DNA of 64,000 bases from a virus, in the IMG/VR virus record IMGVR_UViG_3300003177_000005, positions 32,001-96,000 of that record. One strand, written 5' to 3'. Every line of letters starts with the position of its first letter. The first letter of the stretch is position 1. Below are positions 12,766 to 38,249 of this stretch, piece by piece. The notes below the pieces were generated by a model, which was not told the origin of the DNA, did not search any database, and saw only the letters and a list, made by a program, of their open reading frames with translations. The position numbers and the translations under genes are program-made.

Positions 12766-12902
12766 CATATATTATTAATATAGTGAATGACATCACTATA
12801 GTTGTCTTACTCTTAAGTAAGATTAGTTATACTGTGAAGTATAACACCCTGTCTTATGGTGGATTCCATACACCTAAGACGTAACCTTATAAGGAGGGAA
12901 TT
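12766..12902 (+). promoter_or_regulatory. Promoter plus four-hairpin structured 5' leader, copy 1
   Basis: CATATATTATTAA, then P1 tatagtga/tcactata, P2 tcttac/gtaaga, P3 gttatact-GTGA-agtataac, P4 gtctta..ggtg/cacc..taagac, then AAGGAG. Confidence 0.8.
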
Positions 12903-13121
12903 ATGGAATTAACTAAAATTGAGCTACATAAGCTCATAAAGGCTGGGGAACACCTAGCCATAAACCTATTAATAAATAGATACGGCTATGATGCTTTCGT
13001 AGCCAGATACGGTAGGGAGATTGCGGGTCACCGCATCTCCCTTCGTGATGTGGGAGCTGAAGTTTACGAAGCTCACCACATCACTAAAGAGGTGGTTATT
13101 GAGCCTGTAGAGGCTCAATAA
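12903..13121 (+). CDS. Small hypothetical protein in leader cassette 1
   Basis: 72 aa, strong RBS, visibly more GC-rich than flanks. Confidence 0.75.
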   Translation: MELTKIELHKLIKAGEHLAINLLINRYGYDAFVARYGREIAGHRISLRDVGAEVYEAHHITKEVVIEPVEAQ

Positions 13122-13158
13122 CTATCCTCGCCGTATCTTATTAACTATTTATTTTTTT

Positions 13159-15297
13159 TTATTCCCTACCATACATTTCTTTTATGGATAGTTTGTTCTG
13201 TCTAAATATACCTAATGTCTCTAAAATCATATAGTAACCTGCCATAGTAGTATCTAGTAGTTTACTATAATCAACAAAATCTTTTAACTCATCTGGTATA
13301 CCTATACTTTCGGCATATGTCATCGGTACTCTAAATTGTTTTAATTCCTTTTTATTATTAGCTCTAAGGAAATTATCAAGTCTATCTAGAAATATACTAT
13401 TACCTTTACCTTCTTCTTTAAATGTTTTTATAGTACTACTACTAAACTTCACAGTTGGTATTGTAACTACTTTATATTCTGGTTCAGGGGCATTACCGTA
13501 TTTTTTACTAAAAACACCATTCCATAATAGATGTTGAAAATATGTTGAATTTTTGACACCCTCACTATAAGCTTTAGCAGGTTTTATAGAACTTACTCTT
13601 AAAAAGTTATAATCAGCTTTTTGTACACGCTCTATTAGATATTCTTCCATATCTATAACTTTATTAATAACCTTATTTATATCTAAACTACTCTCTTGTT
13701 CTATAGATGTCAAGATATATTTCATAAGGTCTTTTTGTCCTTCTTTAATCTTTTCTGGGAATGCTCCACCCAATAAAGTAGGACCTTTAATCTCAGGTTT
13801 ATAAGAATCAAAAACAAACCCTTCCTTAATGTTTACCTTAGCGTAATAGTTTTTAGAAGCATATATAGCCATTAAAGGCCAGTAATACTCATTTTTCATC
13901 TTAAGTAAATCTCTTTTATCTGGTTGGACATTCATATTGGTAGCTAATGTTTTTAGGTTATGATCAATAGCTTGCGTTACAAATGTCATAATAATAGCCG
14001 AAACAGCTGTTGCATCTTTGGTAAACTTGATATCACCAAAATACCATTGTACCCAATCTTGATAAGTTCCACAAGTTGAATCAGTATCAGATAGTACTAT
14101 GGCATCTCTTACCATAAGTTTAGTGTCAGCAACATTAGGTGGTAAGATAACTGTTCTAAAGAATGTATCTATTAATAATTCTTGTTCTTCAATTTTCTTA
14201 TAGATATGTAAAGCTGTTGTAGCCAATTTATCTAACAATACCATATCTTCTATAGCATCAAATTTAACATCTTTACCTTTTACATCTTCAGATACAATAT
14301 GGAATAGTAAGTTAATGATAAATTCAGGCATATCCTTTAATAGCTTAACTTTATCTTCTCTACTTCCTTCTATACCAGAAACTGGTTTTATCATATCAGT
14401 TACTAGGGTCTTTAAAAAGGTTGGGTTAAATTCTCTAATATTATAAAGGTTATTAACATAAGCAATCGCTGCTCTTTCTACTGGGGTTAATTTCTTTATA
14501 TACTTAAGTATCTCCCAATCTTTTTCTCTATTTTGCCAATATTGATGAGCAGGTTCTAATAGTGATTTTGCTAATTCTTGATAAGTTGGTATTCTAAGAA
14601 CCAATTTATCTAATGTATATTTAACTTTATCCATATCTATAAATGTTATTATAGAAGTTATATAATCCATAACTAACTCTGGAGTTCTGAATATATAATT
14701 AGATGCCACCATAACTTCTGTTAATGCATTACCTATACCTGCAACACAACGAGTAACTGATGTTAATCCATAGTGAGCTGATGCGTTATAAAGAACATTA
14801 AATACTGATGCGTATGCTCCTGATAATGAGTTGTTTAAAATCTTCTTACTATTTTGATAACCATTATAAAAGTCATATAGTTCCATTTTCTTTTCAGCAT
14901 AAAACTTCTTAGCCTTTTGTTTCGCATCGTTTCTTTCAGCAACGTTTTTAAATGTATATGTAGCGTCTATACCAGCTTCTTTATTAGACGCTATATAAAC
15001 AGTCATAGATGGTGCTAAGGCATTACCCTCTTCAGACGCCTTTCTTAAATAACCTAAAAAATTCCCTCTTTTCTTTACTTTATCTTTTACTTCATTTCTC
15101 TCATAATATTCTATCTCTGGGTCTCTAAAACCGTGATCTTTTAATGCTTTTCTAATAATATATTTAGCTTCTTCACCTACTATTTCATAGCGAACTTCTA
15201 AAAACTTTTTATACATCTTAATCATATTACCTAATAGATCCAGATGTCGCTTATATTCATTCGATGGTAGGATAAAAGGGTTATTAAATTTAGACAT
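13159..15297 (-). CDS. Family B DNA polymerase, phiKZ gp50-like polymerase-domain subunit
   Basis: QNSKKILNNSLSGAY (motif B), LSDTDST (motif C), KNYY, LKMKNE; 712 aa without an evident exonuclease domain. Confidence 0.88.
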   Translation of the reverse strand: MSKFNNPFILPSNEYKRHLDLLGNMIKMYKKFLEVRYEIVGEEAKYIIRKALKDHGFRDPEIEYYERNEVKDKVKKRGNFLGYLRKASEEGNALAPSMTVYIASNKEAGIDATYTFKNVAERNDAKQKAKKFYAEKKMELYDFYNGYQNSKKILNNSLSGAYASVFNVLYNASAHYGLTSVTRCVAGIGNALTEVMVASNYIFRTPELVMDYITSIITFIDMDKVKYTLDKLVLRIPTYQELAKSLLEPAHQYWQNREKDWEILKYIKKLTPVERAAIAYVNNLYNIREFNPTFLKTLVTDMIKPVSGIEGSREDKVKLLKDMPEFIINLLFHIVSEDVKGKDVKFDAIEDMVLLDKLATTALHIYKKIEEQELLIDTFFRTVILPPNVADTKLMVRDAIVLSDTDSTCGTYQDWVQWYFGDIKFTKDATAVSAIIMTFVTQAIDHNLKTLATNMNVQPDKRDLLKMKNEYYWPLMAIYASKNYYAKVNIKEGFVFDSYKPEIKGPTLLGGAFPEKIKEGQKDLMKYILTSIEQESSLDINKVINKVIDMEEYLIERVQKADYNFLRVSSIKPAKAYSEGVKNSTYFQHLLWNGVFSKKYGNAPEPEYKVVTIPTVKFSSSTIKTFKEEGKGNSIFLDRLDNFLRANNKKELKQFRVPMTYAESIGIPDELKDFVDYSKLLDTTMAGYYMILETLGIFRQNKLSIKEMYGRE

Positions 15298-15364
15298 TTC
15301 TAACTCCTTATTATAATCAGTAAATAGTAAAATGTATAGTAAAATAAATCATTTCTTTTTTATC

Positions 15365-15495
15365 CATATATTATTAATATAGTGACTGACATCACTATAG
15401 CTGTCTCATTGTAGAGATTACTCTTATCGTGAGATAAGAGACTCTGTCTTATGGTGGATTCCATGCACCTAAGACATAATTTATAAGGAGTTATT
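15365..15495 (+). promoter_or_regulatory. Promoter plus four-hairpin structured 5' leader, copy 2
   Basis: Same promoter/P1; P3 ctcttatc-GTGA-gataagag; P4 nearly identical to copy 1. Confidence 0.8.
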
Positions 15496-15975
15496 ATGGT
15501 AAGATTTGAAGAAAAAAATTGGCAAGAGATTCTATGGATGCCTTCTTCGCCAATTGGTTTCGGAGAAGAAGGTGATAACACTATAAAGTTTTGTAATGTA
15601 GATGTGTTTCATTTACAAAAAAAAGACTTAGAGATAGGAGAGACTGTTATTTGTGACCTTAATGGTCACATAGTGACTATCACAAATAACAAAGAAGAGG
15701 GGTTTTTATATACCCTCTTCGTGGATGAGGTCTATAGAATAAAAGCTTATCTGGGTATAAATCTAGAGGACCTAATTTATGATGAAGTTATCCTAAAAAC
15801 GCACAAGGACATTGTGAATTTTAAAGTGGGTGACATTATTTCAAGAATAATAGGTGGTAGAAATGTTGTAGCCAATGAGTTTGATGGCGACACAGTTGAA
15901 TGGGGTGAAGAAGTATATTATGCCAAAGGCATAAAAATATATCTAAAAGAAGAGCCAAAAAAGGAGGTTAACTAG
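15496..15975 (+). CDS. Hypothetical acidic protein in leader cassette 2
   Basis: 159 aa, AAGGAG RBS, followed by T-rich terminator-like tract. Confidence 0.75.
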   Translation: MVRFEEKNWQEILWMPSSPIGFGEEGDNTIKFCNVDVFHLQKKDLEIGETVICDLNGHIVTITNNKEEGFLYTLFVDEVYRIKAYLGINLEDLIYDEVILKTHKDIVNFKVGDIISRIIGGRNVVANEFDGDTVEWGEEVYYAKGIKIYLKEEPKKEVN

Positions 15976-15998
15976 CTCTTCTTCTTTTATTTTTTTTC

Positions 15999-17270
15999 CT
16001 ATTTACAACTTTCTTTTATTTTTTCTAATTTTTCTTTCTGTTCTTCTAGAGTTTTTTCCATAAAATCTTTTCTTAAATTATCTAACATCTTACTTAAACT
16101 TTGTTCAAACTTATTAGTATATAGACTTATATTATTATATTCACTTACCATTATTTGGACTACAGTAGAGATAAATTTAGTCATTACCGAGATAAAGACC
16201 TTATTCGAACTATCAGTGTTTATTAACTCAGATTTTAAACCTTCAGATAGAAGCTCCTCAAACTCTTTAGTATTTTTCTCAATTTTCTCTGACTCAGCCT
16301 TAACATCTTTAAAGGATTTTGTTAAATCATCTACTGCCACCCGATCTATCTTCTTAAATTCTCCACTAATTTCTTTTGGTGGTTTTAAGGTAAAATCAAT
16401 GTTCTTATAGACGCCTGGGTCTTTTGTTATTATTTTTATAGAAAAACCTTTATCTGTTACAACTATATTTGGAAAGTAAATAAAATGTTCCTTGTCATTT
16501 CTATGAGACTTATTTATATTTTCTTTTATTACAGCAACTACATCTTTTAAAAGTTTAAGACTATTGTCTAAATTCTCATAAATTTTTTTATGGTTTTCTA
16601 TATCTTCGATAAAATTATCGAATCTTTTTATTGTATCTAAATTTATTTCTCGTATTGTAAGAGTAATGGTGGAAAAGAACAATTGCCTAATACTATCTTG
16701 GTATTTTTTCATTTCGACTTTTAATAGTTTTTCATACTCTTCTTTATTCTTTGCACGACTCGTTACATCTTTTTTGACATTAGAATGCATTACCTGAAAT
16801 TTTTTATTCATCTCTTCAAATCGTCCAGTGACTTTATTTTGATCTAAGTAAAGATCAAATGAGTCTTTTTTAAGACCATAAAGATATGGTACACTCAAAT
16901 CTTCCATATAATAAATAAAATAATGACTTAAATTATAATGCTCAAATAGACATAATAAATCTTGGGTTGTCATATTTATTTTAATTTTATCCTTAAAGAT
17001 TTCACTCAACTTTTTTCCATTAATAGTAATTTCCGATAGAGATGAACTTATAGTTTTCTTTTTACCAAAAATAAACTCCCAAATTTTCTTGAAAAAGCTC
17101 TTAATAACTTTCCACATATTACCTAAGAACCCTTCTACATCATTATACTCTATCATACCTTTGCTATTAACTTGTCTAATTAATACTTGATTTTCAGTAT
17201 TAAGTTCTAGTAAATCTAATTTCTCAATTGTTGATTCTAAATCAATCATCAATTTTTCTATTTTATACAT
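15999..17270 (-). CDS. Probable internal head protein (phiKZ-like processed paralog family)
   Basis: Acidic N-terminal segment, then ..DVE-GFLGNMWKVIKSFFKKIWEFIFG amphipathic helix typical of phiKZ-like head proteins; helical remainder. Confidence 0.55.
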   Translation of the reverse strand: MYKIEKLMIDLESTIEKLDLLELNTENQVLIRQVNSKGMIEYNDVEGFLGNMWKVIKSFFKKIWEFIFGKKKTISSSLSEITINGKKLSEIFKDKIKINMTTQDLLCLFEHYNLSHYFIYYMEDLSVPYLYGLKKDSFDLYLDQNKVTGRFEEMNKKFQVMHSNVKKDVTSRAKNKEEYEKLLKVEMKKYQDSIRQLFFSTITLTIREINLDTIKRFDNFIEDIENHKKIYENLDNSLKLLKDVVAVIKENINKSHRNDKEHFIYFPNIVVTDKGFSIKIITKDPGVYKNIDFTLKPPKEISGEFKKIDRVAVDDLTKSFKDVKAESEKIEKNTKEFEELLSEGLKSELINTDSSNKVFISVMTKFISTVVQIMVSEYNNISLYTNKFEQSLSKMLDNLRKDFMEKTLEEQKEKLEKIKESCK

Positions 17271-17374
17271 TTTAAAACCTTTTTTTATTTTCATTTAACT
17301 AACTTTAAATCGAATAATTTTTATCTATATATTGTTAATTTGTCATTGACATATTTTTTTTAAAGGGGTTAACA

Positions 17375-18241
17375 ATGAGAAAAGCTTTCTTATTAATCGC
17401 AGTGTTACTAATCACTATAAACTTTAGTGGGTGTAAGTTCTTGCAAAAAGGTAATGAGGTTATCTATATAGATAAGACAAGTAATAATGGTTGTGGTAGT
17501 TGTAGTACTGGTTGTAGTGATGAATGTAGTCAACCGTGTAAAAGTGGTGATGGGGGGTGTGAACCATCATATTGTATAGGGGGTAAAACTTGGTTTGATA
17601 ATAACGAAGATGGTCTTTTTAATAGTGGTGATAAAGTTCTAGCACATACTGACTTCAATGTAACACTTAACGATAGTGTAATTGAGTTTAATTCTGATAA
17701 AGATGGTAAGTGGGAGTATTGTGGTGTAAAACCAGGTGATACCGTTAAGTTAAGCTATAAAGGGACTTATGTGCCAACAAAGAAAACAAAAGATAATCTA
17801 TTAAATTCTGATGGTGTATCAGATTTACTAGAGATGATTGATTGTAATAACAGACATCTAGATATTGGTGTTAAAGTTAAAACTGTTAATACAGCATCAG
17901 TGAAAGTTACACAAAGAAAATATACCAAATGTGGTTGTGGTGGCAGATATGATAGTGAAGCTAAATATGGTTATACTAATATGGTCGTTACTGGTAAGAA
18001 CATAGTTGATGTCATCTTCACTACTGATCAACCATTAACAGCTTTATGGAATAACCATAGCCGTTATATTAAAGATTTTAGTTATCAAAATCTAGGTACA
18101 AGATTCCATTGGCCTAAAAATAATGAAGGTGGGAAAGGTGGTTATTGGATTTACAGTAAACAAAGTAATCCAGCTGTGATACAAGCAATTGTAACATTTA
18201 AAGATGGCAGTAAAAAAACCATAAATGTAATTAAAGGGTAA
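17375..18241 (+). CDS. Lipoprotein with Cys-rich linker and SdrD B-like domain
   Basis: Signal peptide with lipobox FSG-C; CGSCSTGCSDECSQPC; IGGKTWFDNNEDGLFNSGD...SDKDGKWEY..VKPG...LDIGV. Confidence 0.7.
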   Translation: MRKAFLLIAVLLITINFSGCKFLQKGNEVIYIDKTSNNGCGSCSTGCSDECSQPCKSGDGGCEPSYCIGGKTWFDNNEDGLFNSGDKVLAHTDFNVTLNDSVIEFNSDKDGKWEYCGVKPGDTVKLSYKGTYVPTKKTKDNLLNSDGVSDLLEMIDCNNRHLDIGVKVKTVNTASVKVTQRKYTKCGCGGRYDSEAKYGYTNMVVTGKNIVDVIFTTDQPLTALWNNHSRYIKDFSYQNLGTRFHWPKNNEGGKGGYWIYSKQSNPAVIQAIVTFKDGSKKTINVIKG

Positions 18242-18243
18242 CT

Positions 18244-18669
18244 ATGTTTTATTCATTAGATACAAACAATGAAAAGTTTTTAAAATGGTTAGAAGATTTT
18301 GAAGGTGTAGTAAAAAATTTTAATAAAAATAATATTTTTCTTATTATAGATATAATTATTACTAATTTAAAAAAAGAAAACATGAATCAATTGTAATGAA
18401 TAAATTAGATAAAAAACTTTGTGATTTGACAGTTAATAATTGTTATAAATACAAGGTTTTTGGAATTGAAATTAAAAAATTAAATAAAAAAAAACTACAT
18501 AGTTATAAAAGATGAAGAAGAAAACTTTTTTATATATTCATATAGTGCTGATGAAGATTTAACATCTGTATTAGAACTAAATAGAATAAAAATTCTCGAC
18601 TATTTTAAAGAACCAAAGGTTTTAAATGCTGATAGTCTAGAAAGTCTTAAAGAGTTTTTAGAAATATAA
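18244..18669 (+). pseudogene. Hypothetical gene broken at two poly-A runs
   Basis: MFYSLDTNNEKF... continues to ...LKEFLEI only with indels at A-runs near 18370 and 18490. Confidence 0.5.
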
Positions 18670-18672
18670 ATA

Positions 18673-18708
18673 TATATCTAGTTATGGATTTTACCATAAC
18701 TAGATATA
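18673..18708. terminator. Probable bidirectional terminator
   Basis: tatatctagttatgg/ccataactagatata stem between convergent genes. Confidence 0.7.
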
Positions 18709-18737
18709 ACAAAGATTATTGGAAATTATTTTTTTTA

Positions 18738-19128
18738 TTAAAAGTCGAACTCCAAATTATTACCCATCTCATAATTGGTGTTTGTTGTATCGAAGCTACC
18801 TCTTTCCACATTACTGAAATTAACATTTCTATCTACTAATTTCTGTAAGAAAGTTTTATCATTCTTTTTATAAATGTTGTCTAAACCGATAGCTGTCATT
18901 CTTTCGTTAGCATAGTTCTTAACAGTCATATCTAACATCTGATCTGTCATGCCCATAACTGGATAATCTTTAATTAATTGTTTAGCAAATTCTAATTCAA
19001 TGTTAACAGCCTCATCAATCATCTTGTAAACATTATCAATTACTTTAGTGTCTATTTTATTTTCTCTTCTTATCGTCTTAAAAATGTTCGCAAACAACGG
19101 CAGGTGGGAGTTTATCTCATCTCTTGCT
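18738..19128 (-). CDS. nrdB: Ribonucleotide reductase class Ia beta subunit, exon 2
   Basis: Begins a-gca-aga-gat-gag (ARDEINSH, second ExxH-type iron ligand region); ends TNYEMGNNLEFDF. Confidence 0.88.
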
Positions 19129-19815
19129 CCTTTATGTTCATATACAGACGCAACTCTGTATACAGTTCTCTTATGAACTTCTACATGTTTCCATATAGAG
19201 CAGACTATATCAACACCTTCAACATTACTTGGTCAGGTGACTGCTGTTTCGGACATCATTAGCTTATGTCCTACTCCCAAAAGGGATAGTCGTTAGGCTT
19301 TTATTTATTAAAACTAGAGAACGCTACTATTTACTCAGGAAATGTAATATCTGGAAAATCATTATCTATGATTTACAACATTATAGTTACCTTTTACTAA
19401 AAAAGTTGTTGCAACTAAACGATGTATAGTTTGAGTTTTGGTTTTGTACTTACCATTCTTATAATAAGTTATAGAAAGACTATAATAACCAGAACTATCT
19501 ATACATGGTATTATTTTTTTAATACGTTCTTTTATGTATATTTTTCCATTCAATACAAAACGTCTCTTTGTGCCATAAACATTTCCTTTTTTGTCAATAT
19601 AATACCCAAAACTATCAGGTATTAAACGAGTATCCTCTAACATAATTACATCCTTTCATTTTTTTTCATTAAAGAATATAACATGTTTTAATAAAATTTA
19701 GCACGGTAAGTTACCCACAGCTTCAACTGTTTGGGCTTTCTCCGTTTAAGCAGTTTTCGACATACAATTTCTTGTATGAAGCACTAACTGTTTTCCTTAT
19801 GCGAAAACAGTGTTA
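19129..19815 (-). mobile_element. Group I intron in nrdB (687 nt)
   Basis: 5' splice U paired with G in P1 (cauuaa/uuagug), P3 acugcu/agcagu, R element CCUAACGACUA, S element GAUAUAGUCU, terminal G; splicing gives AFI-ARDE and a 339-aa NrdB. Confidence 0.88.
19362..19643 (-). pseudogene. Truncated NUMOD4/HNH homing endonuclease within the intron
   Basis: YYIDKKGNV..GYY..IHRLVATTF..VVNHR then stop, before the HNH Asn residues. Confidence 0.75.
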
Positions 19816-20444
19816 ATGAAAGCAACCATATCTCTAGCACCAATAAATTTACTACCCATATTAAAGATAAAAGCAAATCCTGTTAAGAAATAAACACCTT
19901 CTAAAGCAACAGAAGCAGTTGCAGATAATAACATACCATTTGTATCATCTCTATTTATATGTCTTAGGAACTGTTCAGCTATCTTTTGGTTTTTTAAACT
20001 TAAAGGGACATAAAGTTTATCAGCTTCTCTAACTGCATCTGCATTACCAGCTGAATCTAATAGTACACTATATGATTGACTATGGTTAGTCTCTTGAGCT
20101 TGTTGTATCGTTATTGTAGACTTTACTATATTATTATTTACTTTTGCTCTAAAATCAGCTAGATGGTCTTCTTGTATAGCATCATTGATTGATAACTGAG
20201 CAAATACTTTTTCATAAATATTTTTCTCATTATCAGTAGCATTAGATAAAGCTAATTTTTCACCAGATGTATTAACTTCTCCAGGAAACCAAGTATCTGC
20301 CAGCATATTATCCAAAATCTTTTTACTCCAACTATACCTTGGTCTATTAAAATCTCTAAATCCTTTATTCTCTTTACCATTCTTTAAAAGTGTTTCTTCT
20401 AGAGAATCAACTCCGTTTTTATTATAGTATGATTTTCGTTCCAT
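19816..20444 (-). CDS. nrdB: Ribonucleotide reductase class Ia beta subunit, exon 1
   Basis: WFPGEV, LSINDAIQ, QETNHSQSY, LEGVYFLTGF motifs. Confidence 0.9.
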
Positions 20445-20572
20445 TGTATACCTTTTTTTTTATTTTCTAGTCAATAAAACAGTAATAATGAAAAATTAAA
20501 ACGATGCTTTTTTTATCCACTTATTATTCAATTGAGTATATTAATATACTACATTATTAAAAGGAGTTAGAT

Positions 20573-24609: not shown

Positions 24610-24643
24610 ACAGATATAATTAAAATAGTGATGATGTCACTAA
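24610..24643 (+). promoter_or_regulatory. Promoter-like box plus TAGTGA..TCACTA hairpin
   Basis: cagatataattaaaa-tagtga-tgatg-tcacta, same architecture as leader P1. Confidence 0.6.
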
Positions 24644-24763
24644 TTTAGTTTTATACAAATAAGTAATGTTATATTATACTAGGATAACAACTAGAGGTTA
24701 TCTCCATAAAGTAGTATAATATCAAGGCATGAAATGTTTGTATTAAAACACCAAGGAGTTAAA

Positions 24764-25474
24764 ATGACAACAATTAAAAATAAGAATATGGAACTAACAC
24801 ACGATGCTAATAAGGGTATCTTAACAATTAATGATACTTTTCATACCGTTAAATCTAAAGATGAGATTAAGATACTAACAGTATTATTATCAGATAATCC
24901 AATAACAAGAAGTAAAGTAAAAGTTGGAGTAGACAAGAAAATATTTAGAGTTAGTTTTTTTAAATTAAAGATGAGTTTAACAATGAATATCTTTCTAGTT
25001 TTGAAAGAGTTAGACTTACTTAAACTTGAAAATAAATCACCAACATCTTTCATCTTAAATGTTGGGGATAAAAAATTTAATATGGTTTATGAGGATAACC
25101 TATTTAAATTAAAAAGTCATCATAGACATAAAAAAACTTTAAATACTGTTAAATTTAAAGAGATTAAAACAGATCGTGTTAAACTACCAGATATAATTGG
25201 GAGTATTCAAATTAATGGTTATGAACTTAAAAATGAAGAAATAGCTAAAATCCAAATTTACTTAGTAAATGAGATAAAAAAAGCTATTGTAGAACAAGGT
25301 AGTTTTAGTATTTCGGGATTTGGTTCATTTACTTATAAACAAGCATATGTTAAAAAGAATCAATATATGCCAGAGACAGGTTGCAAAAACGACATATTAA
25401 TTAAAGCTAATGTTCGATTTAAAGCAAGTAAAGCATTAAGAGATAAATTATTAGAAAAGACTGAAGGGGAATAG
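24764..25474 (+). CDS. Protein with C-terminal HU/IHF-like DNA-binding domain
   Basis: SFSISGFGSF...PETG...VRFKASKALRDKL; ~150-aa unknown N-terminal part. Confidence 0.75.
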   Translation: MTTIKNKNMELTHDANKGILTINDTFHTVKSKDEIKILTVLLSDNPITRSKVKVGVDKKIFRVSFFKLKMSLTMNIFLVLKELDLLKLENKSPTSFILNVGDKKFNMVYEDNLFKLKSHHRHKKTLNTVKFKEIKTDRVKLPDIIGSIQINGYELKNEEIAKIQIYLVNEIKKAIVEQGSFSISGFGSFTYKQAYVKKNQYMPETGCKNDILIKANVRFKASKALRDKLLEKTEGE

Positions 25475-27717: not shown

Positions 27718-27737
27718 AAAATAAAAAAGGATAACAG

Positions 27738-28202: not shown

Positions 28203-28249
28203 AAGATAATACTCTACTTAAAGTTGTTCCTACTTATAGATACATAATA

Positions 28250-28468: not shown

Positions 28469-28476
28469 ATGTATTA

Positions 28477-28520
28477 CTAGGTGTAGGTTTAAAACCTACA
28501 CCTAGCTTATTTTTTTTTAT
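28477..28520 (+). terminator. Intrinsic terminator
   Basis: ctaggtgtaggtt/aacctacacctag stem followed by T-tract. Confidence 0.8.
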
Positions 28521-28592
28521 TTCATTATGTTTTTATACAGATATAGTTTAAATAGTGATTAAGATCATTATATTTTAATTAAGGAGAGAAAG

Positions 28593-29156: not shown

Positions 29157-29591
29157 TGTTATGAACAGTTTTATACAAAACTATTTACCAAGGATTTTGT
29201 CTTTGGTAATATTTTAAGTATTACTAAAAATAAGTCAAAACAAGAACAAGAGAGAATACATATTTTTATCGTTTCTCTAATTGCTAACTTTTTCTTTACA
29301 GCATTACTAAAAGATTATCTACCAGTTCCAGAAAATACAACCGAGTTTGTTTTATTGTCTGTTATGTGTATAATTGGTTTTGTTACTATTATGGTAACAT
29401 ATGAAAGTAAAATTAAATAAATGGTTACGGAAGTAGGAGCATTTGAGAAGAAGATTGATTATGTATAAATTAAAAGAAAATATTAATATTTGATACTAGG
29501 AGCCGTATGGTTTCCTAGTAACATCTTTTACTATTAAAGTAACCTTTATTTTTTTATTTTCGACCTTTATTATTGATAAGATAAAAAAAAA

Positions 29592-29601
29592 GGGGGGGGG
29601 G
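29592..29601 (+). repeat. G10 homopolymer in RBS position
   Basis: A9-G10-ttacta-ATG. Confidence 0.85.
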
Positions 29602-29607
29602 TTACTA

Positions 29608-29943
29608 ATGAATGAGTTTAATAACAAAGGTATATCGGAGTTAAAGGATTTAATTTATGTTAATACAAGAAAGTTTAAAGATGACAAGAAAATACTTTTT
29701 GATGTATTAGTCAAAATACAAATGGAGATACTATTAAAGTTAGCCCCATCAAAGGATATCGTAATAGAAGATTTAAATAATATTTTAAAAGGTGATTTTG
29801 CTGTTTATGATGATCCATTTACAAATATAAATGAAATTATTCTAGAAAATATTTATGATAATAATTTAGATTATAATAAAGAACTACAGCGTTTAGCTGT
29901 TTTTTCATTTTTAAAATGTCAAAACGAAGGTATACTTGATTAA
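29608..29943 (+). CDS. Hypothetical protein
   Basis: 111 aa. Confidence 0.7.
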   Translation: MNEFNNKGISELKDLIYVNTRKFKDDKKILFDVLVKIQMEILLKLAPSKDIVIEDLNNILKGDFAVYDDPFTNINEIILENIYDNNLDYNKELQRLAVFSFLKCQNEGILD

Positions 29944-30018
29944 CTCTCAGTTTAGAGAGTTAATCAAAATATTTTCATAAAGATATTTTTTAATTAATAT
30001 TAGAAAGGACTTAGAAGT

Positions 30019-30351: not shown

Positions 30352-30365
30352 AAGGGAGATTAGTT

Positions 30366-30929: not shown

Positions 30930-31473
30930 TAAAAATGGTTTTGTTATGGAAGAATACAACGATAGAATAAAGTTCTATTCTTATAATACTCCATTATATG
31001 TGAATGTTCTTTATATTAATTTTAAAGATATAGAAAAATATAGTTTTGAGATAGTTACTGTTCTTAAAACTCGCTGTATAATTAATCTTAAAATCAAAAC
31101 AGATCAAGGTATCCTACTAAAAGATTTTCAGATAAGTTTAAGAAAAGAAGAAACTAGATGGTATATCTATCAAATAGTAGATTTAAATAAACAAATGTTT
31201 GAGTCTTTTTTAGAGATTATCGCTCCTGATTTAGTCTTAGCATACACACCAAAAAAAGTGTTAAAATTATTTAGACGGAACTATATACATGTAGATACTC
31301 TTAAATTTGAACCAAATCTTTTCTTAATAGATTATGGTAACCCTATTTTTAACCAGATGACAAGAAAAATAAAAGAATTAGTTCTGTTTAATAAAGATAA
31401 TACAACTTTTATTTTAAAACAATATAAAGATGATAAAGCATTTTATCTAACTAAATTTTTAATAACAAATTAA
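30913..31473 (+). CDS. Hypothetical protein
   Basis: 186 aa, AGGAG RBS. Confidence 0.7.
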   Translation: MLKKYNKNGFVMEEYNDRIKFYSYNTPLYVNVLYINFKDIEKYSFEIVTVLKTRCIINLKIKTDQGILLKDFQISLRKEETRWYIYQIVDLNKQMFESFLEIIAPDLVLAYTPKKVLKLFRRNYIHVDTLKFEPNLFLIDYGNPIFNQMTRKIKELVLFNKDNTTFILKQYKDDKAFYLTKFLITN

Positions 31474-31488
31474 CAAAAAGGAACAGTA

Positions 31489-31866
31489 ATGATTTGGGAA
31501 TTAAAACCAACAAAAGGAAGACCTAAAATAAAAGATTTTATCTATGATAGAATAGGTAGTGAAACGGTTATACCAAATGAGACTAATGTTTTTAGATACA
31601 TAACTATATTGGCTAAATACGAACTTAAAAAAGATTATAAAGAACTAACTATAATCAAGAAGACTAAGTGTACCTTCGAAGCAAAGATAGATAAAGAGTT
31701 AGACCTTGTTATAACAGCCGTTAAAGCAACAGATGAACTTATGTTTAGAACATACTATATTATCAGATATAATAAAAAATATTATATTTGTAGTAATTCA
31801 AAGTATGATAATTTACTAATGAAGTTCATACTAGATCATAGAGCTAGGGTTAACGAAATCAGTTAG
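31489..31866 (+). CDS. Hypothetical protein
   Basis: 125 aa. Confidence 0.7.
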   Translation: MIWELKPTKGRPKIKDFIYDRIGSETVIPNETNVFRYITILAKYELKKDYKELTIIKKTKCTFEAKIDKELDLVITAVKATDELMFRTYYIIRYNKKYYICSNSKYDNLLMKFILDHRARVNEIS

Positions 31867-31875
31867 ATTTTATCA

Positions 31876-31910
31876 ATATATTTTTTTAATTAGTGAGAAA
31901 TATCACTATA
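31876..31910 (+). promoter_or_regulatory. Promoter-like box plus TAGTGA..TCACTA hairpin
   Basis: atatatttttttaat-tagtga-gaaata-tcacta. Confidence 0.6.
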
Positions 31911-31931
31911 TTTTAATTAAGGAGTTAAAAG

Positions 31932-32609
31932 ATGTTTATTAAAGACATAGAATGTCATATCATTTGTTTCCAAAGTGCTGGTTACTATTACTATGGGGAA
32001 TATGTTATTAAAAAAGAGTTTAAAGGTTTGGAGAGTTTCACTGAGTTTTTAAAGAGTATTGATGTTTATTCTATAAGAACTGAATTATTAGAAATGGTAA
32101 AAAATAAGAAAATACCTGAAATGATAAAGGTTGATAGAAAAATAATTAGGGGTTTATTTACTGATAATCTTCTTTCTTCATTAGAAAATAAAGAACTCAT
32201 TAAACTTATTCTAAAAGATGAAGGTTGTCGTAAGTCTTTTTTATACCATTTTCTAAGAAATCCACATTGTCCAAAGGAATACTTAAAAGAAGTCTCTAAA
32301 AGGAAACTAGTCCCAAAAGACTTAGAGGTATGTGCATTATTAAGTAATGAAAACCTACCAAAAAAAGTTATCAATAAGTTTACACCAGAGGTTATGAATA
32401 TTTTCCATCCAGCTTATGATAAAAATCTCTTAGAAGGAGAAAACAGTTATAAGTATAAATTTAGAAAAGCGTTAAAACAATTACCAGACAGATATACTAA
32501 AATTCTCTGTCCAGATTGTAAGGATGTTTTTAATGTTAGGGATTTGAATTTATTTAAGAGATGCCCAAATTGTAGAGATGTAATTAACAAGGAGTTAAAA
32601 GATGTATGA
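31932..32609 (+). CDS. Hypothetical protein with C-terminal zinc ribbon
   Basis: CPDC...CPNC. Confidence 0.72.
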   Translation: MFIKDIECHIICFQSAGYYYYGEYVIKKEFKGLESFTEFLKSIDVYSIRTELLEMVKNKKIPEMIKVDRKIIRGLFTDNLLSSLENKELIKLILKDEGCRKSFLYHFLRNPHCPKEYLKEVSKRKLVPKDLEVCALLSNENLPKKVINKFTPEVMNIFHPAYDKNLLEGENSYKYKFRKALKQLPDRYTKILCPDCKDVFNVRDLNLFKRCPNCRDVINKELKDV

Positions 32610-33216
32610 TGTTGAATTTGATTTACTCTATGAAAAAAATCTTAGTCCAGAGCTGTATATAGCAAAAGAACTAGACTACGAAAGATTCTATAAAGGTTTA
32701 GACCGTATAGTAACTGAATATTTAAATAAAAAATATCCTGATCTAGAAGTTAGTATAAAAAATAACTACAATTTTGGACAAGTACTTCGAGTTTATAAAC
32801 TTAGTGAAAACAAAAGGTTGGTGGTAGTAGAGTTATCAGCTATATTTAGATATGGTAAAACTGTCGTAAAGGAAGCTATAGAAAACATAAGGATAATACC
32901 TTTAGAACTAGAAAATAAACTAGCTGTTTACATCAAAAAGAATATCGTGAAGTCTCGAAAAAGTGAAAAATGGCTTATTGAAATTTTAAGTCAATATGAT
33001 AAGTTTGGTAAGAGTTTAATTACTAATGAAAAAAAATTATGTTTGATAATAAATAGTTTTCTTATTAATATTACCGATCTTGTAGTTGGGTTTCCTACAT
33101 TAGCAACACCATTTAACACATATTTTGATATTACTTCATTTGACTTTGAAAATGATAAACTTAAAGAAAATTTCTTATCTTTAAAAGAAAATCCAGAGGA
33201 GTTAAAGAATGGGTAA
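32602..33216 (+). CDS. Hypothetical protein, paralog of 28593..29156
   Basis: Shared PLEL and INIT.L.VG.P.L motifs. Confidence 0.7.
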   Translation: MYDVEFDLLYEKNLSPELYIAKELDYERFYKGLDRIVTEYLNKKYPDLEVSIKNNYNFGQVLRVYKLSENKRLVVVELSAIFRYGKTVVKEAIENIRIIPLELENKLAVYIKKNIVKSRKSEKWLIEILSQYDKFGKSLITNEKKLCLIINSFLINITDLVVGFPTLATPFNTYFDITSFDFENDKLKENFLSLKENPEELKNG

Positions 33217-33949
33217 TTTTACTAATGAGAGTTATAAAAAAGGTATCGAAAAAGTGAACCTTGTATTTAGAGGTTTAATCGGTATATTTACTTTTGTATT
33301 TATTTTAACTTTATTAAAAAATGTTAATGTTGAATTTATTAGCTTAGAACTAATGTCTTGTTGGTTTCTTGGTATTACAATTTATCAGACATTTAAAACT
33401 GATGCTGATGATAGGGAATTTAATCTTTTCTTATTATCGGTTTATTTGGGTTTAGTTATGGTCACTTTTTTAGGAGATAAACAAAATGAGGATATTTTAA
33501 GAATACTCGAATTCTTATTAGTTTTCTATATGATTGTAACTAATCTTTATTACAATCTCGTTGAATATTTTACATTGTTTAATTACAAAAAAGTTTTATC
33601 CAATGGTCGTAAAATAAGTACTGTTTTATTTAGTTACTTATTACTTAACATTTTACTGGTTATTTTAAATAAAAATATCTGGCATTATGAATTTTTAATA
33701 TATGGTTTAACATTTATCAATTTATTAGTTTTAGTCGGTGTTTATGCGTCGATTTTATTTAACCTTTATAAAAGGGTTAACGGTTTAAAAAGCTTTGAAA
33801 ATGAAGTAATTAACATTGTTCTATTTATTAATGTTTATGGTATGGTCATTTTCTTTGGTGATGTTACTAATTTAAACATACTGTTTAATACAACTTTAGG
33901 TTTACTATTTTCGCTAGTTTTTATTACGCTAAACATAAATGAAGATTAA
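33209..33949 (+). CDS. Polytopic membrane protein
   Basis: About 8 hydrophobic segments in 246 aa. Confidence 0.75.
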   Translation: MGNFTNESYKKGIEKVNLVFRGLIGIFTFVFILTLLKNVNVEFISLELMSCWFLGITIYQTFKTDADDREFNLFLLSVYLGLVMVTFLGDKQNEDILRILEFLLVFYMIVTNLYYNLVEYFTLFNYKKVLSNGRKISTVLFSYLLLNILLVILNKNIWHYEFLIYGLTFINLLVLVGVYASILFNLYKRVNGLKSFENEVINIVLFINVYGMVIFFGDVTNLNILFNTTLGLLFSLVFITLNINED

Positions 33950-34012
33950 AAGATCGAAAGTCTTTACTACTTACCGATGTAAGTAGTAAAGTAAACATAA
34001 AAGGATTCAAAA

Positions 34013-35375
34013 ATGAAAAAAAGGTTAAACAAAATAAAGATATCAGGTAAGCAATATGGCTTATCTGATAAAAAGGTTTTAAGTTGGTTAGAGTACAAAA
34101 AAGGTAAAATGAATGAACCATTTAGAGTTTTAGATACATATTATTTCTCAGATGGTGGAATTTTAGTAACTGATATAATGTATGATTCAGTTCATACTAT
34201 AAAAGAGTCGGATATGCTACAAGAGTATAAAACAAATGTAGTTGAACTAAACAAAAGAGATGACGAACTCTTTATTGTTGAGGAAGATAAGAACTTTCCT
34301 AAACTTTTTAATATTAATAGTAAAGTTGTTAAAGAAAAAATTGAGAAGGAAATTACTACCGGTATGTTAGAGTTAAAAAATGGTAGGTTTATAGAAAAAA
34401 AAACATCTTACTCCATTAATAACATTCTTAAAAACATATGAGAATCTTAATAACCAAACATTAACAGATTTCGCCAAATGGCTTGATAAGTTTTTTGATT
34501 TAGAGTACTTATATATCAATAGTAATAATATTGGTAGTATTTACATCATAACTGATTTTGAACAAGTGAAAAAACATGGTATTGAGTTACTTGAATTTGG
34601 TTTAGACAATTTACCAAAACGATTTTGCAAAGTTGGGTTTACAACTATAAGAAGTCATAAAGATAATAGTGAATGTCTTATAAACGGATATATGTTATAT
34701 AGTGTTGATTTGGACGAGGTGTTAGTTTCTTATACCGAAAATAAATATATTATTTATCAAAGTGATGAACCAAATTATAGCCATACGGAATATATAAACC
34801 CTCATTTTAGGCACATGGATACTACTTCAGTTTTTAGTGATAGGAGTTTAGAGAAGATAATAAATTTCTTTAATCTAAGTAACTTAGACATTATTTATGT
34901 GGACAATTATCCATATCTAATTGTTACTAGTAATATACTAAAACCAATAGGTACTGTTCTAAGTACTCTATATAGAGTCTTAAATAAAGGTGAATACGAA
35001 CTTAGAAGTAAGGTGGAGGATAAGTTTAAAACATCCATTACCTTGAACTATAGTGTTGAGGATAAAGTCGCAGAAAAGATACTTAATGCGATACACGATA
35101 TAAAAGTAAGAAAACTTCGTTCATATCTATTATCAAGAGATAATTCACAGTATAAACTAAATCATATTAATAACTGGGCAAAAAGACATAGTGATACAAC
35201 ATCTAATTTTAACTATGAAAAAGGTTTTGTAGATTTAATAATAAAAGATGATTTTGGACTTATAGAAGAAGATACATATTTGCCAGAGGTTTACTTACAT
35301 ATTACTAAAGAGTCTACATATTATACCTTTAGTAAAGAAAAGTTTAAGAATAAAGATTTTGATATTAAATTATAA
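34013..35375 (+). pseudogene. Single hypothetical gene split by frameshift at A9 (34395-34403)
   Basis: Removing one A joins 34013.. to an open frame (KHLTPLITFLKTYENL...) running into 34566..35375. Confidence 0.65.
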
Positions 35376-35384
35376 GGAGAAAAA

Positions 35385-36009
35385 ATGAAAATTATTACAG
35401 GATTTGAGGTATTCGATAAAAATGGTGGTTTACAACTAGGTGATGTTGTTAATGTATTTAAAACAGTATATTCAGGTGGAAGTATCTTTCTTAATAACTT
35501 AGCCTTTAATATTGTTGTTAAAAATAATAATTATGTATGTTTTTTGTTATAATGATAAGAATGATGATTTGGTCTATGTAGCAACTAAAGTTAAAGAGTT
35601 TTTTAGAAAAAGGTCTTGGAATCTAAATGTTTTACAAAAATATCTAGAAAAAGAAGACCTTATAAAGATAGCTAATTCAAATGTTGATATTTTTATAAGT
35701 GATACAATAGTTAGAAGAGATATATTCAATAATGAGATTAAGGAGCTGTTTAATAAAAATAAAAAACTCTTTATACAAACTCATAATATACCTTTAACGT
35801 GTTTAGTAGATAGTGAAGCAAAAGAATTTTTAAATGTTATTTTAAAACAACAAGCTCAATATGTAGATCGGTCTATTAGACTAATTCAAGATGAAAATGA
35901 TAAAACAGTTATCACACTTAACAATATCGAAGTATCAGATGATGATGCTAAAGAAAAACAATTTGATACTTTAAAATTAGCTAGGAATCGCAAAATAACT
36001 AATGTATAG
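35385..36009 (+). pseudogene. Degenerate RecA-fold (DnaB/KaiC-like) protein, frameshifted at T6
   Basis: MKIITGFEVFDKNGGLQLGDVV..YSGGSIFLNNLAFNI; Walker B-like VDIFISD; one-T indel at 35540-35545. Confidence 0.55.
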
Positions 36010-36020
36010 TAGATATAATT

Positions 36021-36632
36021 ATGGTTATGAAAAAAATACAACAAAACAAGTTTACCAGATTGCTTGATAAAATAAAAAACCAAATTAAAAATTATTGGTT
36101 GAAGGTTAATGGAAATAGTGATAGAGGTTGTCAACAAGTGAAAACAGATGATTTTTTAAATGATAATAATTTTCTTTTAACTTATTCCATTTTAAAAATA
36201 AAGGATAAAAGTTTAACTCATTTTATAGCTAATCATTGTTTACTCTTTCATAAGGGTGAAGGTTACTTTAAGGGTGGAAAATACTTTAAAAAGTCAACAT
36301 TTAACTATATGTGTCCCAAAGAACCTGAATATACAGAAATGTATATAAAAGACCAAGACTATGGGATTACTGATTATAAGTTTATAAACAGATTTGAGTT
36401 CTACAAAAGTATAGAGGACTATGAACTAAAAATTGAAATAACTGGTTACATATTAGATGGGTGTACTGATATTTATTTTGAAGTCATTGAGGTTGATGAC
36501 AAAATACTTATCATTACTAATGAAGATAATTTAATAAATGATAGTTGTAAAAGTTTTTTTAACATCAAAAAGAATGTTAAGAAAAGTCTCTATTTTATAA
36601 TTAAAGATTTTATTAAAGAAAACAATAATTAA
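36021..36632 (+). CDS. Hypothetical protein
   Basis: Up to 203 aa; start uncertain. Confidence 0.65.
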   Translation: MVMKKIQQNKFTRLLDKIKNQIKNYWLKVNGNSDRGCQQVKTDDFLNDNNFLLTYSILKIKDKSLTHFIANHCLLFHKGEGYFKGGKYFKKSTFNYMCPKEPEYTEMYIKDQDYGITDYKFINRFEFYKSIEDYELKIEITGYILDGCTDIYFEVIEVDDKILIITNEDNLINDSCKSFFNIKKNVKKSLYFIIKDFIKENNN

Positions 36633-36646
36633 AAAAAGGAAGTAAA

Positions 36647-37144
36647 ATGAAGTTTAAATTTGAAGAAAAGAAAGTATTCACAGTAAAGGAAGACGAATTG
36701 ACACTCCTTAATATTGAATACGGTGAATATGGTTTCGATATTGTTCCTGATAGAGTATTTCCCGATAAACATTTAATCCTAGAGGTATTATTAACAATAA
36801 AAGAAACACCTAAATATTTGGATGATGTTGAATTTAAGAAAAATATTGATATGTTAACTGACGGTCTGGAATCGTTAATAGAGGATGGGTTTGTTTTTGA
36901 AAATTTAGATCATAATGAAAATGATTTTAATTTTGTTTCAAATGAAGATTTAAAAGATATTCTGCGTAATTTAGAAAATGGTGTTCCTTATGGTAATATA
37001 ATAGCCGTACAAGATTTCATAAATATCACAAGAGACAAAACTGTTTTGGGTGAAGAGTATACAAAAATTTTAGATGAGGTTAAAAATAAGACTGTTACTA
37101 TTAATGATCTTAAAAATCGTAAAGAAAGTAGACAAACAGATTGA
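36647..37144 (+). CDS. Hypothetical acidic protein
   Basis: 165 aa, AAGGAAG RBS. Confidence 0.72.
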   Translation: MKFKFEEKKVFTVKEDELTLLNIEYGEYGFDIVPDRVFPDKHLILEVLLTIKETPKYLDDVEFKKNIDMLTDGLESLIEDGFVFENLDHNENDFNFVSNEDLKDILRNLENGVPYGNIIAVQDFINITRDKTVLGEEYTKILDEVKNKTVTINDLKNRKESRQTD

Positions 37145-37575
37145 GATAAAAAAACTGTACAATTTTTTAAATAATTTTATTGTAACCGCGTTAATATCAC
37201 CATTATTTTTGATGACAAGTTTAACTATTATTGATCTTGAAAAAGTATTAATTATTGATTGGGTTTTTCTACTATCTTCTTTTACATTGTTCGTAATTGA
37301 TGATATGTTCTTGAAACTTTAAGAAAGGAAGAAAATGTATGAAATAAAGTCAGATGATCCTAAGGAAGATATAATAAATATTATAACTACTAAGGAAGGT
37401 AAAGAGCAAGAGATAGCTCTTGGCCTAAAAGAAGAATATTACGGAGATAAGGAAAAAATAAAAGAATGTTCCAATCTGTAGTAAAATGGTTATATCTAGT
37501 TACATCTATAATAGATAGTAACTATATTTTGCATTTAGCCAGTTTAAGAGATAATATATTAAATGGGAGAGAAAA

Positions 37576-38055
37576 ATGTTTAAAGTAAAAAGAAAAGATT
37601 TAAAAGTTGAGTTCAAACTAATTAAAGAAAATAAGGAACAGTTAATTGTCGAAGTTAAAAATATTGATGTCTCTATAGTTAGATTAGTCCTATCTAGTAA
37701 ATATGCTAATGTTTCTCTATATGAAAATTTAATTAGTGTTGAATTTGCTAGGGAGTTAATGGAATTTATATTAACTCACGAAGATTTCAAAAAGTTTATT
37801 GGTACCGTATACGAAGATATTTTAAAAATGAATTTTATAGAACCTATTAAAGAAGAAAATTTTAAAGAAGGTTTTAGTTCTCTGAAAGATGGTATATTAG
37901 ATGAACTAGGTTATGATGACTTCTTAATGCCTGTAAAGTCATTGGTGTTAGCAGAAATGATAGTGTCTGGTATAGATGAAGCTAGACTAAATGAAAAACA
38001 ACTAAAAGCTCTTAATAATCTTAAAGATAAAATGATTATTGGTATAGATGGTTAA
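37576..38055 (+). CDS. Hypothetical protein
   Basis: 159 aa, GGGAG RBS. Confidence 0.72.
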   Translation: MFKVKRKDLKVEFKLIKENKEQLIVEVKNIDVSIVRLVLSSKYANVSLYENLISVEFARELMEFILTHEDFKKFIGTVYEDILKMNFIEPIKEENFKEGFSSLKDGILDELGYDDFLMPVKSLVLAEMIVSGIDEARLNEKQLKALNNLKDKMIIGIDG

Positions 38056-38085
38056 TACATAGTACTCTAATTAGAGTACTATGTA
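38056..38085 (+). terminator. Hairpin terminator
   Basis: tacatagtactct/agagtactatgta right after stop codon. Confidence 0.65.
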
Positions 38086-38117
38086 TAAGAATTATTATTT
38101 AAATCGATTTTTTTATC

Positions 38118-38249
38118 CATATATTATTAATATAGTGAATGACATCACTGTAGTTGTCTCAACTATGTTGATATTAGATATATTGTGAGATATATCGATC
38201 TTCTTAACTTTACACATAGGGGTAAGAGTTATTTTTAAAAGGAGAAAAT
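38118..38249 (+). promoter_or_regulatory. Promoter plus structured 5' leader, copy 3
   Basis: Same promoter/P1; P2 tcaac/gttga; P3 gatatatt-GTGA-gatatatc; divergent P4 taact-ttac/gtaa-g-agtta. Confidence 0.75.

Follow-up and report, generated by a model that had tools for sequence, protein, structure and literature searches.

Candidate early-gene cassettes headed by folded, mosaic 5' leaders in an uncultivated phage related to phiKZ and AR9

This analysis concerns a repeated 5' leader in an uncultivated virus, studied in a 64,000-nucleotide stretch of IMG/VR record IMGVR_UViG_3300003177_000005 (the window; positions 32,001 to 96,000 of a record of 119,559 bp, or 119.5 kb). Coordinates are those of the window unless marked as genome. 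Three copies of the leader in the window and a fourth outside it would each form the head of an early-gene cassette in what appears to be a deep-branching jumbo phage of the phiKZ/AR9 type. Each head would comprise an extended AT-rich early promoter (TTTTATCCATATATTAT-N6-R) read by a virion RNA polymerase (vRNAP), with transcription starting at the A before GUGA; a hairpin, P1, at the very 5' end of the transcript and common to many other early promoters; and, in this four-member subfamily only, the modules P2, P3 with its GNRA loop, and P4. Behind the leaders of cassettes 1-3, the coding sequence is itself unusually dense in hairpins. On balance, and with moderate confidence, we favour a reading in which these are early-promoter cassettes resembling the promoter-early stem-loop (PeSL) cassettes of T4, with an RNA fold selected for mRNA protection or handling and with modules that have been exchanged.

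All three copies reported in a preliminary description of the window are present. A 35-nt core, TATTAATATAGTGAATGACATCACTATAGTTGTCT, matches the plus strand at 12773, 15372 and 38125 with 0, 2 and 1 mismatches, respectively, and matches the whole record at these three sites only; 100 shuffles gave no match, and 0 are expected by chance. The P1 stem is AGUGA/UCACU by both alignment and RNAfold, and the features of the three leaders, with promoters scored against a position weight matrix (PWM), are the following.

12755-12781, plus strand: copy 1 early-type promoter; core ATATATTAT at 12767-12775, then 6 nt; predicted start A12782; PWM 17.5 bits
12782-12797, plus strand: copy 1 P1, AGUGA-AUGACA-UCACU, at the predicted 5' end (RNAfold)
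12804-12823, plus strand: copy 1 P2, GUCUUACU-CUUA-AGUAAGAU (arms UCUUACU/AGUAAGA)
12826-12845, plus strand: copy 1 P3, GUUAUACU-GUGA-AGUAUAAC
12851-12880, plus strand: copy 1 P4, GUCUUA-U-GGUG...CACC-UAAGAC; 29 of 30 positions as in copy 2 P4
15354-15380, plus strand: copy 2 early-type promoter; predicted start A15381; PWM 28.2 bits
15381-15396, plus strand: copy 2 P1 (RNAfold, alignment)
15403-15418, plus strand: copy 2 P2, GUCUC-AUUGUA-GAGAU (arms UCUC/GAGA)
15421-15440, plus strand: copy 2 P3, CUCUUAUC-GUGA-GAUAAGAG
15445-15476, plus strand: copy 2 P4, near-identical to copy 1 P4
38107-38133, plus strand: copy 3 early-type promoter; predicted start A38134; PWM 28.4 bits
38134-38149, plus strand: copy 3 P1 (fold, alignment)
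38156-38174, plus strand: copy 3 P2, UCAAC-UAU-GUUGA with a GU..AU base (arms UCAAC/GUUGA)
38177-38196, plus strand: copy 3 P3, GAUAUAUU-GUGA-GAUAUAUC
38202-38227, plus strand: copy 3 P4, with a UCUUA...UAAGA base; weak, unlike copies 1 and 2

P3 is exactly as first described, with a different 8-bp stem in each copy under a GUGA loop. P4 had been assigned to every copy; it holds in copies 1 and 2 (GUCUUA-GGUG...CACC-UAAGAC), is different and weaker in copy 3, and is absent from copy 4. In this fourth long leader (genome 15634-15725), P1 includes one G-U pair, P2 is akin to the P2 of copy 1, and P3 is GUAAUCA-GCAA-UGAUUAU, in which a GNRA loop again caps another stem. The covariance-model search that had been proposed as a check recovered the four long leaders: a model built from them has exactly four matches in the record (E 4.5e-23 to 3.3e-11), and the next match (E 0.03) covers P1 only. 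The element is not private to three copies, as had been supposed, since promoter and P1 are more widespread, belonging to a family of 21 promoter matches, and P2-P4 are confined to a four-member subfamily. Within copy 1 P2, at 12811-12818, one contig carries small indels at about half depth, which are likely to be cross-mapping of the related copy 4 P2 but may instead be a real variant. A mini-ORF (open reading frame) beginning at an AUG in the P1 loop (MTSL-stop, copies 1 and 3) was judged a coincidence; copies 2 and 4 have CUG there.

Base-pair changes among the four long leaders suggest that selection would act on the sense-strand RNA fold rather than on the sequences of the stems. In an alignment fitted to the covariance model (31 pairs, 112 cells, 500 shuffles), 92.9% of the cells pair, compared with 75.9% after shuffling, and 14 of the 31 pairs change on both sides where 6.3 are expected, values that none of the 500 shuffles reaches. 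When partners are slid by 1-3 columns, only 35-46% pair. All eight pairs of P3 change on both sides while 96.9% of its cells remain paired, and P2 keeps a constant base of G-U, U-A, C-G and U-A beneath variable tips, the G-U being found in all four copies. Both strands of the record together hold 20 GNRA-capped hairpins of at least 7 bp, where 20 shuffles average 9.6; the P3s account for four, and their position is the same in every leader. The compensatory change claimed for the leader thus stands for its hairpins, above all P3, and hardly applies to P1, where ten sequences show one double change.

P1 is best seen across the wider promoter family. The predicted +1 to +26 stretch folds at -3 kcal/mol or below in 10 of 21 cases, against 9%, 12% and 18% in three controls, and a hairpin of -2 kcal/mol or below starts at +1 or +2 of 11 of the 21 promoters. 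Alignable AGUGA...UCACU variants follow ten promoters and are 98% paired, with two G-U pairs and a single double change (G-C to A-U, at 41162). With almost no covariation, P1 could be a sequence element. At this +1 position the promoters with predicted starts at 20535 and 57877 have hairpins unrelated to P1, and these two hairpins, together with the G-U pairs, lead us to favour the RNA reading of P1. It is in any case lineage-specific, either as a 5'-terminal stem-loop or as a conserved initially transcribed or operator sequence.

The genes behind the leaders, and the polymerase gene lying between two of them, are listed below (SD, Shine-Dalgarno sequence).

12903-13121, plus strand: cassette 1 ORF; 72 aa, GC 0.44, strong SD; most folded RNA of the record, coding-like
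13159-15297, minus strand: divergent family-B DNA polymerase between cassettes 1 and 2 (PF20286, E 3.1e-161; phrog_2927)
15496-15975, plus strand: cassette 2 ORF; 159 aa, orphan, hairpin-dense, with helices of 8-12 bp along the ORF
38250-38806, plus strand: cassette 3; two orphan ORFs, 38250-38504 (84 aa) and 38540-38806 (88 aa), hairpin-dense
Downstream of copy 4, outside the window: cassette 4 ORF, 208 aa

Folding does not stop at the leaders. The minimum free energy (MFE) of 12903-13145 in cassette 1 is -119.5 kcal/mol (z -12.6 and -14.6 in two computations), ORF folding z scores are -6.2 in cassette 2 and -4.8 and -5.4 in the two ORFs of cassette 3, and 9 of the 12 most over-folded of 995 GC-regressed, plus-strand 240-nt segments lie in cassettes 1-3. 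Each such fold consists of local hairpins of 7-12 bp strung out along the ORF. In the cassettes, folding of the sense strand is more stable than that of the antisense strand by 18-40 kcal/mol, and sense G-U pairs outnumber antisense ones in cassette 3 (30 vs 6) and cassette 2 (23 vs 12). The ORFs are nonetheless coding-like, with strong SDs and frame-1 log-odds that are positive but lie at the 1st-26th percentile of small genes. Their GC content at third codon positions (GC3; 0.30-0.42 vs 0.18 in long genes) is raised as expected from RNA-structure selection laid over coding sequence, foreign origin being the alternative. Since the hairpins are dense beyond the ribosome-binding site (RBS), running the whole length of cassettes 1-3, the leader-specific riboregulator of the preliminary description is too narrow a conception.

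The proteins themselves offer few clues. No cassette protein matched Pfam or PHROG at the set limits, and none had an Atlas match above 0.84. For the cassette 1 protein, BLASTP gives a single homologue over the full length (35% identity over 72 aa), and the only other match of the cassette 2 protein is a variant without 21 aa in frame (15589-15651). At E<=1 the cassette 4 protein gave only a sub-threshold match to holin_BlyA (E 0.023); read by eye, it looks like a membrane protein with several hydrophobic segments. A different small orphan gene with its own T-rich terminator had been proposed for each leader. The cargo is orphan, although copy 3 stands before two ORFs; every cassette has T-rich tracts behind it, but a terminator scan found no canonical terminator right after cassettes 1 and 2, and cassette 3 ends in a GAGGC-GUAA-GCCUC hairpin with a T-run. 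The variant of the cassette 2 protein is encoded in another assembly, of this phage or of one nearly identical to it, in which a polymerase fragment is also internally deleted; the 21-aa deletion is either strain variation or assembly collapse.

The strand asymmetry also bears on an explanation confined to DNA, under which the conserved block of 45 nt would serve solely as promoter and initially transcribed sequence, possibly also as a palindromic operator (AGTGA-N6-TCACT) that turns early transcription off, and P2-P4 would be remnants of terminator hairpins or palindromes that template switching makes and maintains in replication and recombination. One-step template switching can mimic compensatory change. 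P1 is near-invariant, terminator hairpins with 4-nt loops stand just upstream of several family promoters (e.g. GAGGC-GTAA-GCCTC), and in cassette 1 the minus strand folds almost as well as the plus strand (-140.8 vs -159.2 kcal/mol). We nevertheless consider this account improbable. The sense-strand G-U enrichment and greater plus-strand stability speak against it, the G-U pair at the base of P2 in every copy would be a mismatch in DNA, no U-runs follow P2-P4, two other promoters have unrelated hairpins at +1, and RNA-level selection is indicated by the raised GC3 and the over-folding seen in the ORFs.

Several observations weigh against the RNA-cassette reading that we prefer. P1 covariation is not significant, with 93 of 500 shuffles reaching its score, and P1 is mostly conserved sequence; its arm spacing is 6 in 8 of 10 sequences, and so near-constant a spacing could mark a DNA operator or an initially transcribed element. 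A +1 hairpin follows 10-13 of the 21 promoters here, where starts are predicted, but only 2 of 19 early promoters of phage AR9 (mean MFE -0.7 kcal/mol vs -1.0 for random 26-mers). AR9 mostly lacks such a hairpin, so P1 is not general to this promoter type. Support for P2-P4 comes from four paralogues of one genome, which are not independent, in a model-fitted alignment; the covariation rests on paralogues because no close relative was reached. Taken whole, the leaders of copies 3 and 4 are no more stable than shuffles (z -0.9 and -0.7, compared with -3.9 and -3.3 for copies 1 and 2), and cassette 4 pairs a long leader with an ORF that is not over-folded (z +0.1). Transcription start sites, timing and transcription itself are drawn by analogy, a sigma-70 promoter in a host that needs no -35 box would share the -10-to-start geometry, and recombination is read from mosaicism only; contigs from four runs contained no joint between repeats.

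The promoter ties these cassettes to a larger family. A weight matrix grown from the copies (matches counted at >=12 bits) finds 21 sites of TTTTATCCATATATTAT-N6-purine in the record, 20 of them on the plus strand; 19 are found no more than about 150 nt before an ORF on their own strand, one is inside a gene, and the remaining match, at 41001 on the minus strand, faces a GC-rich non-coding stretch. The promoter shared by the leaders is indeed present in all copies, but it is not theirs alone. A or G stands at the 7th position after ATATATTAT in the matches. Published accounts give the early promoter consensus of the AR9 virion RNA polymerase as AAATATATATTAT-(6N)-G+1 and describe phiKZ-related vRNAP promoters as extended, AT-rich and highly conserved, with a start 6 nt downstream (PMC5312081; similarly for 201phi2-1, PMC11512511). 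The core ATATATTAT (identity 9/9), the N6 spacing and the purine start here equal the AR9 early consensus, and the likeness to these systems, so far as those accounts describe them, extends to an extended conserved AT-rich motif in many copies, nearly all on one strand, before early genes of unknown function. The upstream half differs, being TTTTATCC here and AAAT in the AR9 consensus as published.

By analogy with AR9, we infer that the block is a phage early promoter with starts at A12782, A15381 and A38134, probably read by a virion RNA polymerase, because of the AR9-like 9-mer and spacing, the phiKZ-type DNA polymerase, the beta'-like RNA polymerase (RNAP) fragments and the chance level of sigma-70-like sites (34 found vs 31.1 expected). 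The host sigma-70 polymerase might instead read TATTAT as a -10 box, with the T-rich upstream part replacing the -35 box and no virion polymerase involved. Campylobacterota-like hosts typically have a T-rich stretch in place of the -35 box. Hexamer, 6 nt and purine start have the geometry of a bacterial -10 element, and the site at 12775-12802 scores 9/12 in a sigma-70 scan. Such a reading seems unlikely to us, given the chance-level sites, the lack of a -35 box or TG extension in promoters of the family, and the two beta'-like fragments and phiKZ-type polymerase encoded in the record; the 28-nt conservation and 9/9 core identity also fit extended AT-rich vRNAP promoters as reported (PMC5312081, PMC11512511).

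Other members of the promoter family in the window share a hairpin at the predicted start.

20507-57896, plus strand: same-family promoters with a hairpin at the predicted start, 9-mers starting at 20519, 24612, 28539, 31876, 41147, 46532 and 57862 (PWM scan and folds of +1 to +26)

Downstream of the promoter match at 57862 lie a 594-aa ORF and a gene for a beta'-like RNAP (PF00623, 33.4 bits, cut-off 25.3), which fits early expression of a non-virion polymerase. Within the record, estimated to be 46% complete, PF00623 marks two beta'-like places, at 31 bits (over the cut-off) and 14.4 bits (below it), and PF00562 has no match. The 594-aa ORF (57929-59713) carries a precomputed PF25677 (chimallin) tag that our own profile scans did not reproduce; a PDB sequence search and tblastn against phages returned nothing, and its single-sequence fold (mean predicted confidence, pLDDT, of 32) was unusable. 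A tandem early and late promoter was considered and rejected: GACA-TCACTA-TAG resembles the AR9 late motif AACA-N6-TA/G, but the motif is not enriched upstream of genes (14 of 274 occurrences within 70 nt of a start vs about 11 estimated by chance), the copy at 41147 lacks it, and no late-promoter motif could be derived for this phage.

Three observations concern individual members of the family. At 24612-25474, a 236-aa protein whose C-terminal domain is of the HU/IHF DNA-binding type (PF00216, E 7e-9) follows an early-type promoter and a leader of 150 nt; P1 there is the variant AGUGAU-GAU-GUCACU. From genome 16407 onward, a member with a short leader (P1 alone) stands before an ORF in which inspection by eye suggests a DHH/DHHA1 phosphoesterase, with a GGGH motif close to the end; a profile scan places a RecJ-like DHH protein at 5695-7335. 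The minus-strand match at 41001 lies upstream of a GC-rich (0.48), ORF-poor stretch at 40345-41001 (minus strand) that is among the most folded stretches scanned (at 40481, MFE -87.5 kcal/mol, GC-corrected z -2.8).

What the folded leader does is a question of role, and here we suggest that it would protect or handle early orphan mRNAs, P1 guarding the 5' end and the remaining hairpins conferring endonuclease resistance and longevity. Short 5'-terminal stem-loops stabilise mRNAs in E. coli ompA and phage leaders, and B. subtilis has 5' stabilisers acting against RNase J. P1 resembles them in being short and stable, in leaving 0-1 nt unpaired at the predicted 5' end, and in recurring on many transcripts that share a temporal class; it differs in being conserved in sequence and not only in shape, at a 5' end that is here only predicted. 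A ligand- or protein-operated switch is less likely, and we prefer the protective or handling role because RBS occlusion is ordinary, the leaders contain no U-tract terminator, Rfam holds no relative, and hairpins continue beyond the start codon. Sequestration of the RBS is not supported as a distinguishing feature: mean unpaired probability of the SD region in the four leaders is 0.38-0.58, the 27th-60th percentile of 134 genes, measured in a local window of -70 to +12 that leaves the long-range helix of copies 1 and 2 outside. The leader may also act as a translation enhancer or an export signal, roles that had been raised for it earlier.

A more specific regulatory proposal is that P2, P3 and P4 form a compact fold recognised by a phage or host protein or by a small ligand, timing translation of the cassette; the P3 loop might dock into CU:AG pairs of P2 or P4, and a closing helix would cover the SD and AUG. 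Docking of GUGA loops into CU:AG pairs follows a specific rule. P3 does retain its shape and GNRA loop despite changes in every pair of its stem, GUCU...AGAU and GUCUUA...UAAGAC persist as helix bases below varying tips, and RNAfold closes P2-P4 in copies 1 and 2 with AUAGUU/AAUUAU and AUAGCU/AGUUAU (a U-A to C-G swap) in a helix touching the SD or AUG. Helical receptors for GYRA loops are, moreover, a class already described (PMC2275092). Yet we hold this riboregulator, the chief rival of the protective reading, to be doubtful: SD accessibility is ordinary, the closing helices of copies 1 and 2 are out of register with each other, copies 3 and 4 have a weak one or none, copy 4 has no P4, and no Rfam relative was found. 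The hairpin chain also runs on through the ORFs, which suggests a general structural property rather than a discrete aptamer.

Pressed further, the protective role could mean that these are 'armoured' immediate-early orphan messages, folded from first nucleotide to terminator and shielded from RNA-directed defences such as Cas13, type III CRISPR and abortive-infection RNases; or the 5' hairpin and GNRA module could be a handle by which a phiKZ-like, possibly nucleus-forming phage recognises early transcripts and moves them out of the early infection compartment. We offer either as a speculation with little likelihood. RNA-directed immunity is the sole class of defence to which such phages are known to remain open. 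Whole-message over-folding could bear on how early transcripts of such phages are protected and exported, and early mRNA protection and exit from the early infection vesicle are stated as an open question in a recent review (PMC12908238).

The second half of our reading is that leader modules have been exchanged. Identity between leaders differs by module: P1 and linker are 83-95% identical in all pairs; P2 ranges over 47-65% and is highest between copies 1 and 4; P3 stems range over 6-69%, highest between copies 1 and 3 and standing at 38% for copies 1 and 2; and P4 reaches 97% in the pair of copies 1 and 2, compared with 40-43% when copy 3 is set against either of them. The nearest relative by pairwise identity thus changes from module to module, which fits exchange between leaders at conserved blocks. 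The promoter/P1 block and the helix bases (GUCUUA...UAAGAY) would supply the homology for recombination, giving mosaic leaders in the manner of PeSLs. The idea of a module for swapping genes thus gains indirect support from the mosaic similarity and from the T4-type precedent, but contigs of the four runs, which break at the repeated promoter, show no recombinant joint.

In T4-type phages, as reported, PeSL cassettes are repeated units of about 100 bp (stem-loop, AT-rich region, early promoter, SD) that flank orphan genes and mediate their shuffling (PMC2839356, PMC4122927). The leaders here are likewise repeated composite units between genes and before orphan genes, and their mosaic similarity is the footprint expected from exchange in such a system. 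In the PeSL as published, however, the promoter is of sigma-70 type, with the stem-loop upstream as a terminator, whereas here the promoter is of vRNAP type, sigma-70-like features are at chance level or missing, and the covarying hairpins are part of the predicted transcript, downstream of the promoter. The phage lineage also differs, and neither mini-circles nor recombinant joints were observed here. A hairpin with a T-run does occur upstream of the promoters at 28539, 38857, 39735, 46532 and genome 16392; these sequences are not conserved, and none precedes copies 1 and 2. Closer in lineage, ONT-cappable-seq of 201phi2-1 and phiKZ revealed structured 5' untranslated regions (UTRs) and 5'UTR-derived small RNAs (PMC11512511). 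Those, too, are jumbo-phage transcripts with conserved, folded 5'UTRs of no known role, but in that account they lie upstream of a conserved tail gene and derive from premature termination, whereas the leaders here have no U-tract terminator, precede orphan genes and are within-genome paralogues.

The leader was proposed as an undescribed RNA, and Rfam agrees: no family matched at gathering score in the 64-kb window, and none at E<=5 in 12600-15600 and 38000-41200, an interval that also takes in the folded stretch at 40345-41001. No tRNA or tmRNA was detected either. Among viral contigs, promoter plus P1, close polymerase relatives and the cassette 2 variant each gave 0 matches, and one 14-mer gave chance matches only. 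Metagenome contigs gave 0 matches to the promoter pattern, and alignment of the polymerase led to one distant locus (37% identity) where the leader is absent and the polymerase neighbours are not homologous. Genome contigs gave 21 single chance matches, and the four-leader model matched none of the 22 loci searched.

The polymerase gives an indication of where this phage belongs. Cassettes 1 and 2 on the plus strand flank the minus-strand gene, as first described. The enzyme is of the phiKZ/AR9 type and at most about 31% identical to that of any cultured phage, the best matches being Bacillus phage AgentSmith and PhiPA3-like phages; the AgentSmith polymerase is likewise inverted relative to its neighbours, a 73%-identical polymerase exists on a 3.7-kb contig, and a relative is present at low share in one sequencing run. 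If our reading is right, the family is the early promoter of a very divergent phiKZ/AR9-like phage, and the ATATATTAT-N6-R core is common far beyond Bacillus phage AR9. The leader would also be a new structured RNA that Rfam lacks, its compensatory changes within a single genome being unusually clean, and the cassettes would provide an example outside the T4 group of promoter-bearing units that carry orphan early genes and exchange modules.

Some further features of the record lie apart from the cassettes. Two minus-strand genes (window 1442-1553 and genome 30541-30636) have nearly the same sequence over the preceding 55 nt or so (AAAGTTATTTACTTGAATATAAAAYAATAAGTTAAAGGAAAGAAAATG), and ACTTGAAT recurs upstream of a gene at genome 109656; this repeated unit may be another promoter class. 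The 240-nt stretches 9281-9520 and 3881-4120 are over-folded (GC-corrected z -3.7 and -3.6), the latter holding a long perfect hairpin between convergent or divergent genes. A run of about 9 A and then about 10 G at 29560-29607, just upstream of an ORF at 29608, may be prone to slippage or may reflect misassembly. In the 988-aa large subunit of ribonucleotide reductase (52899-55865), residues 314-446, between the N-terminal and barrel domains, give a weak HINT-type match (E 0.004, below the cut-off), so the protein may carry an intein.

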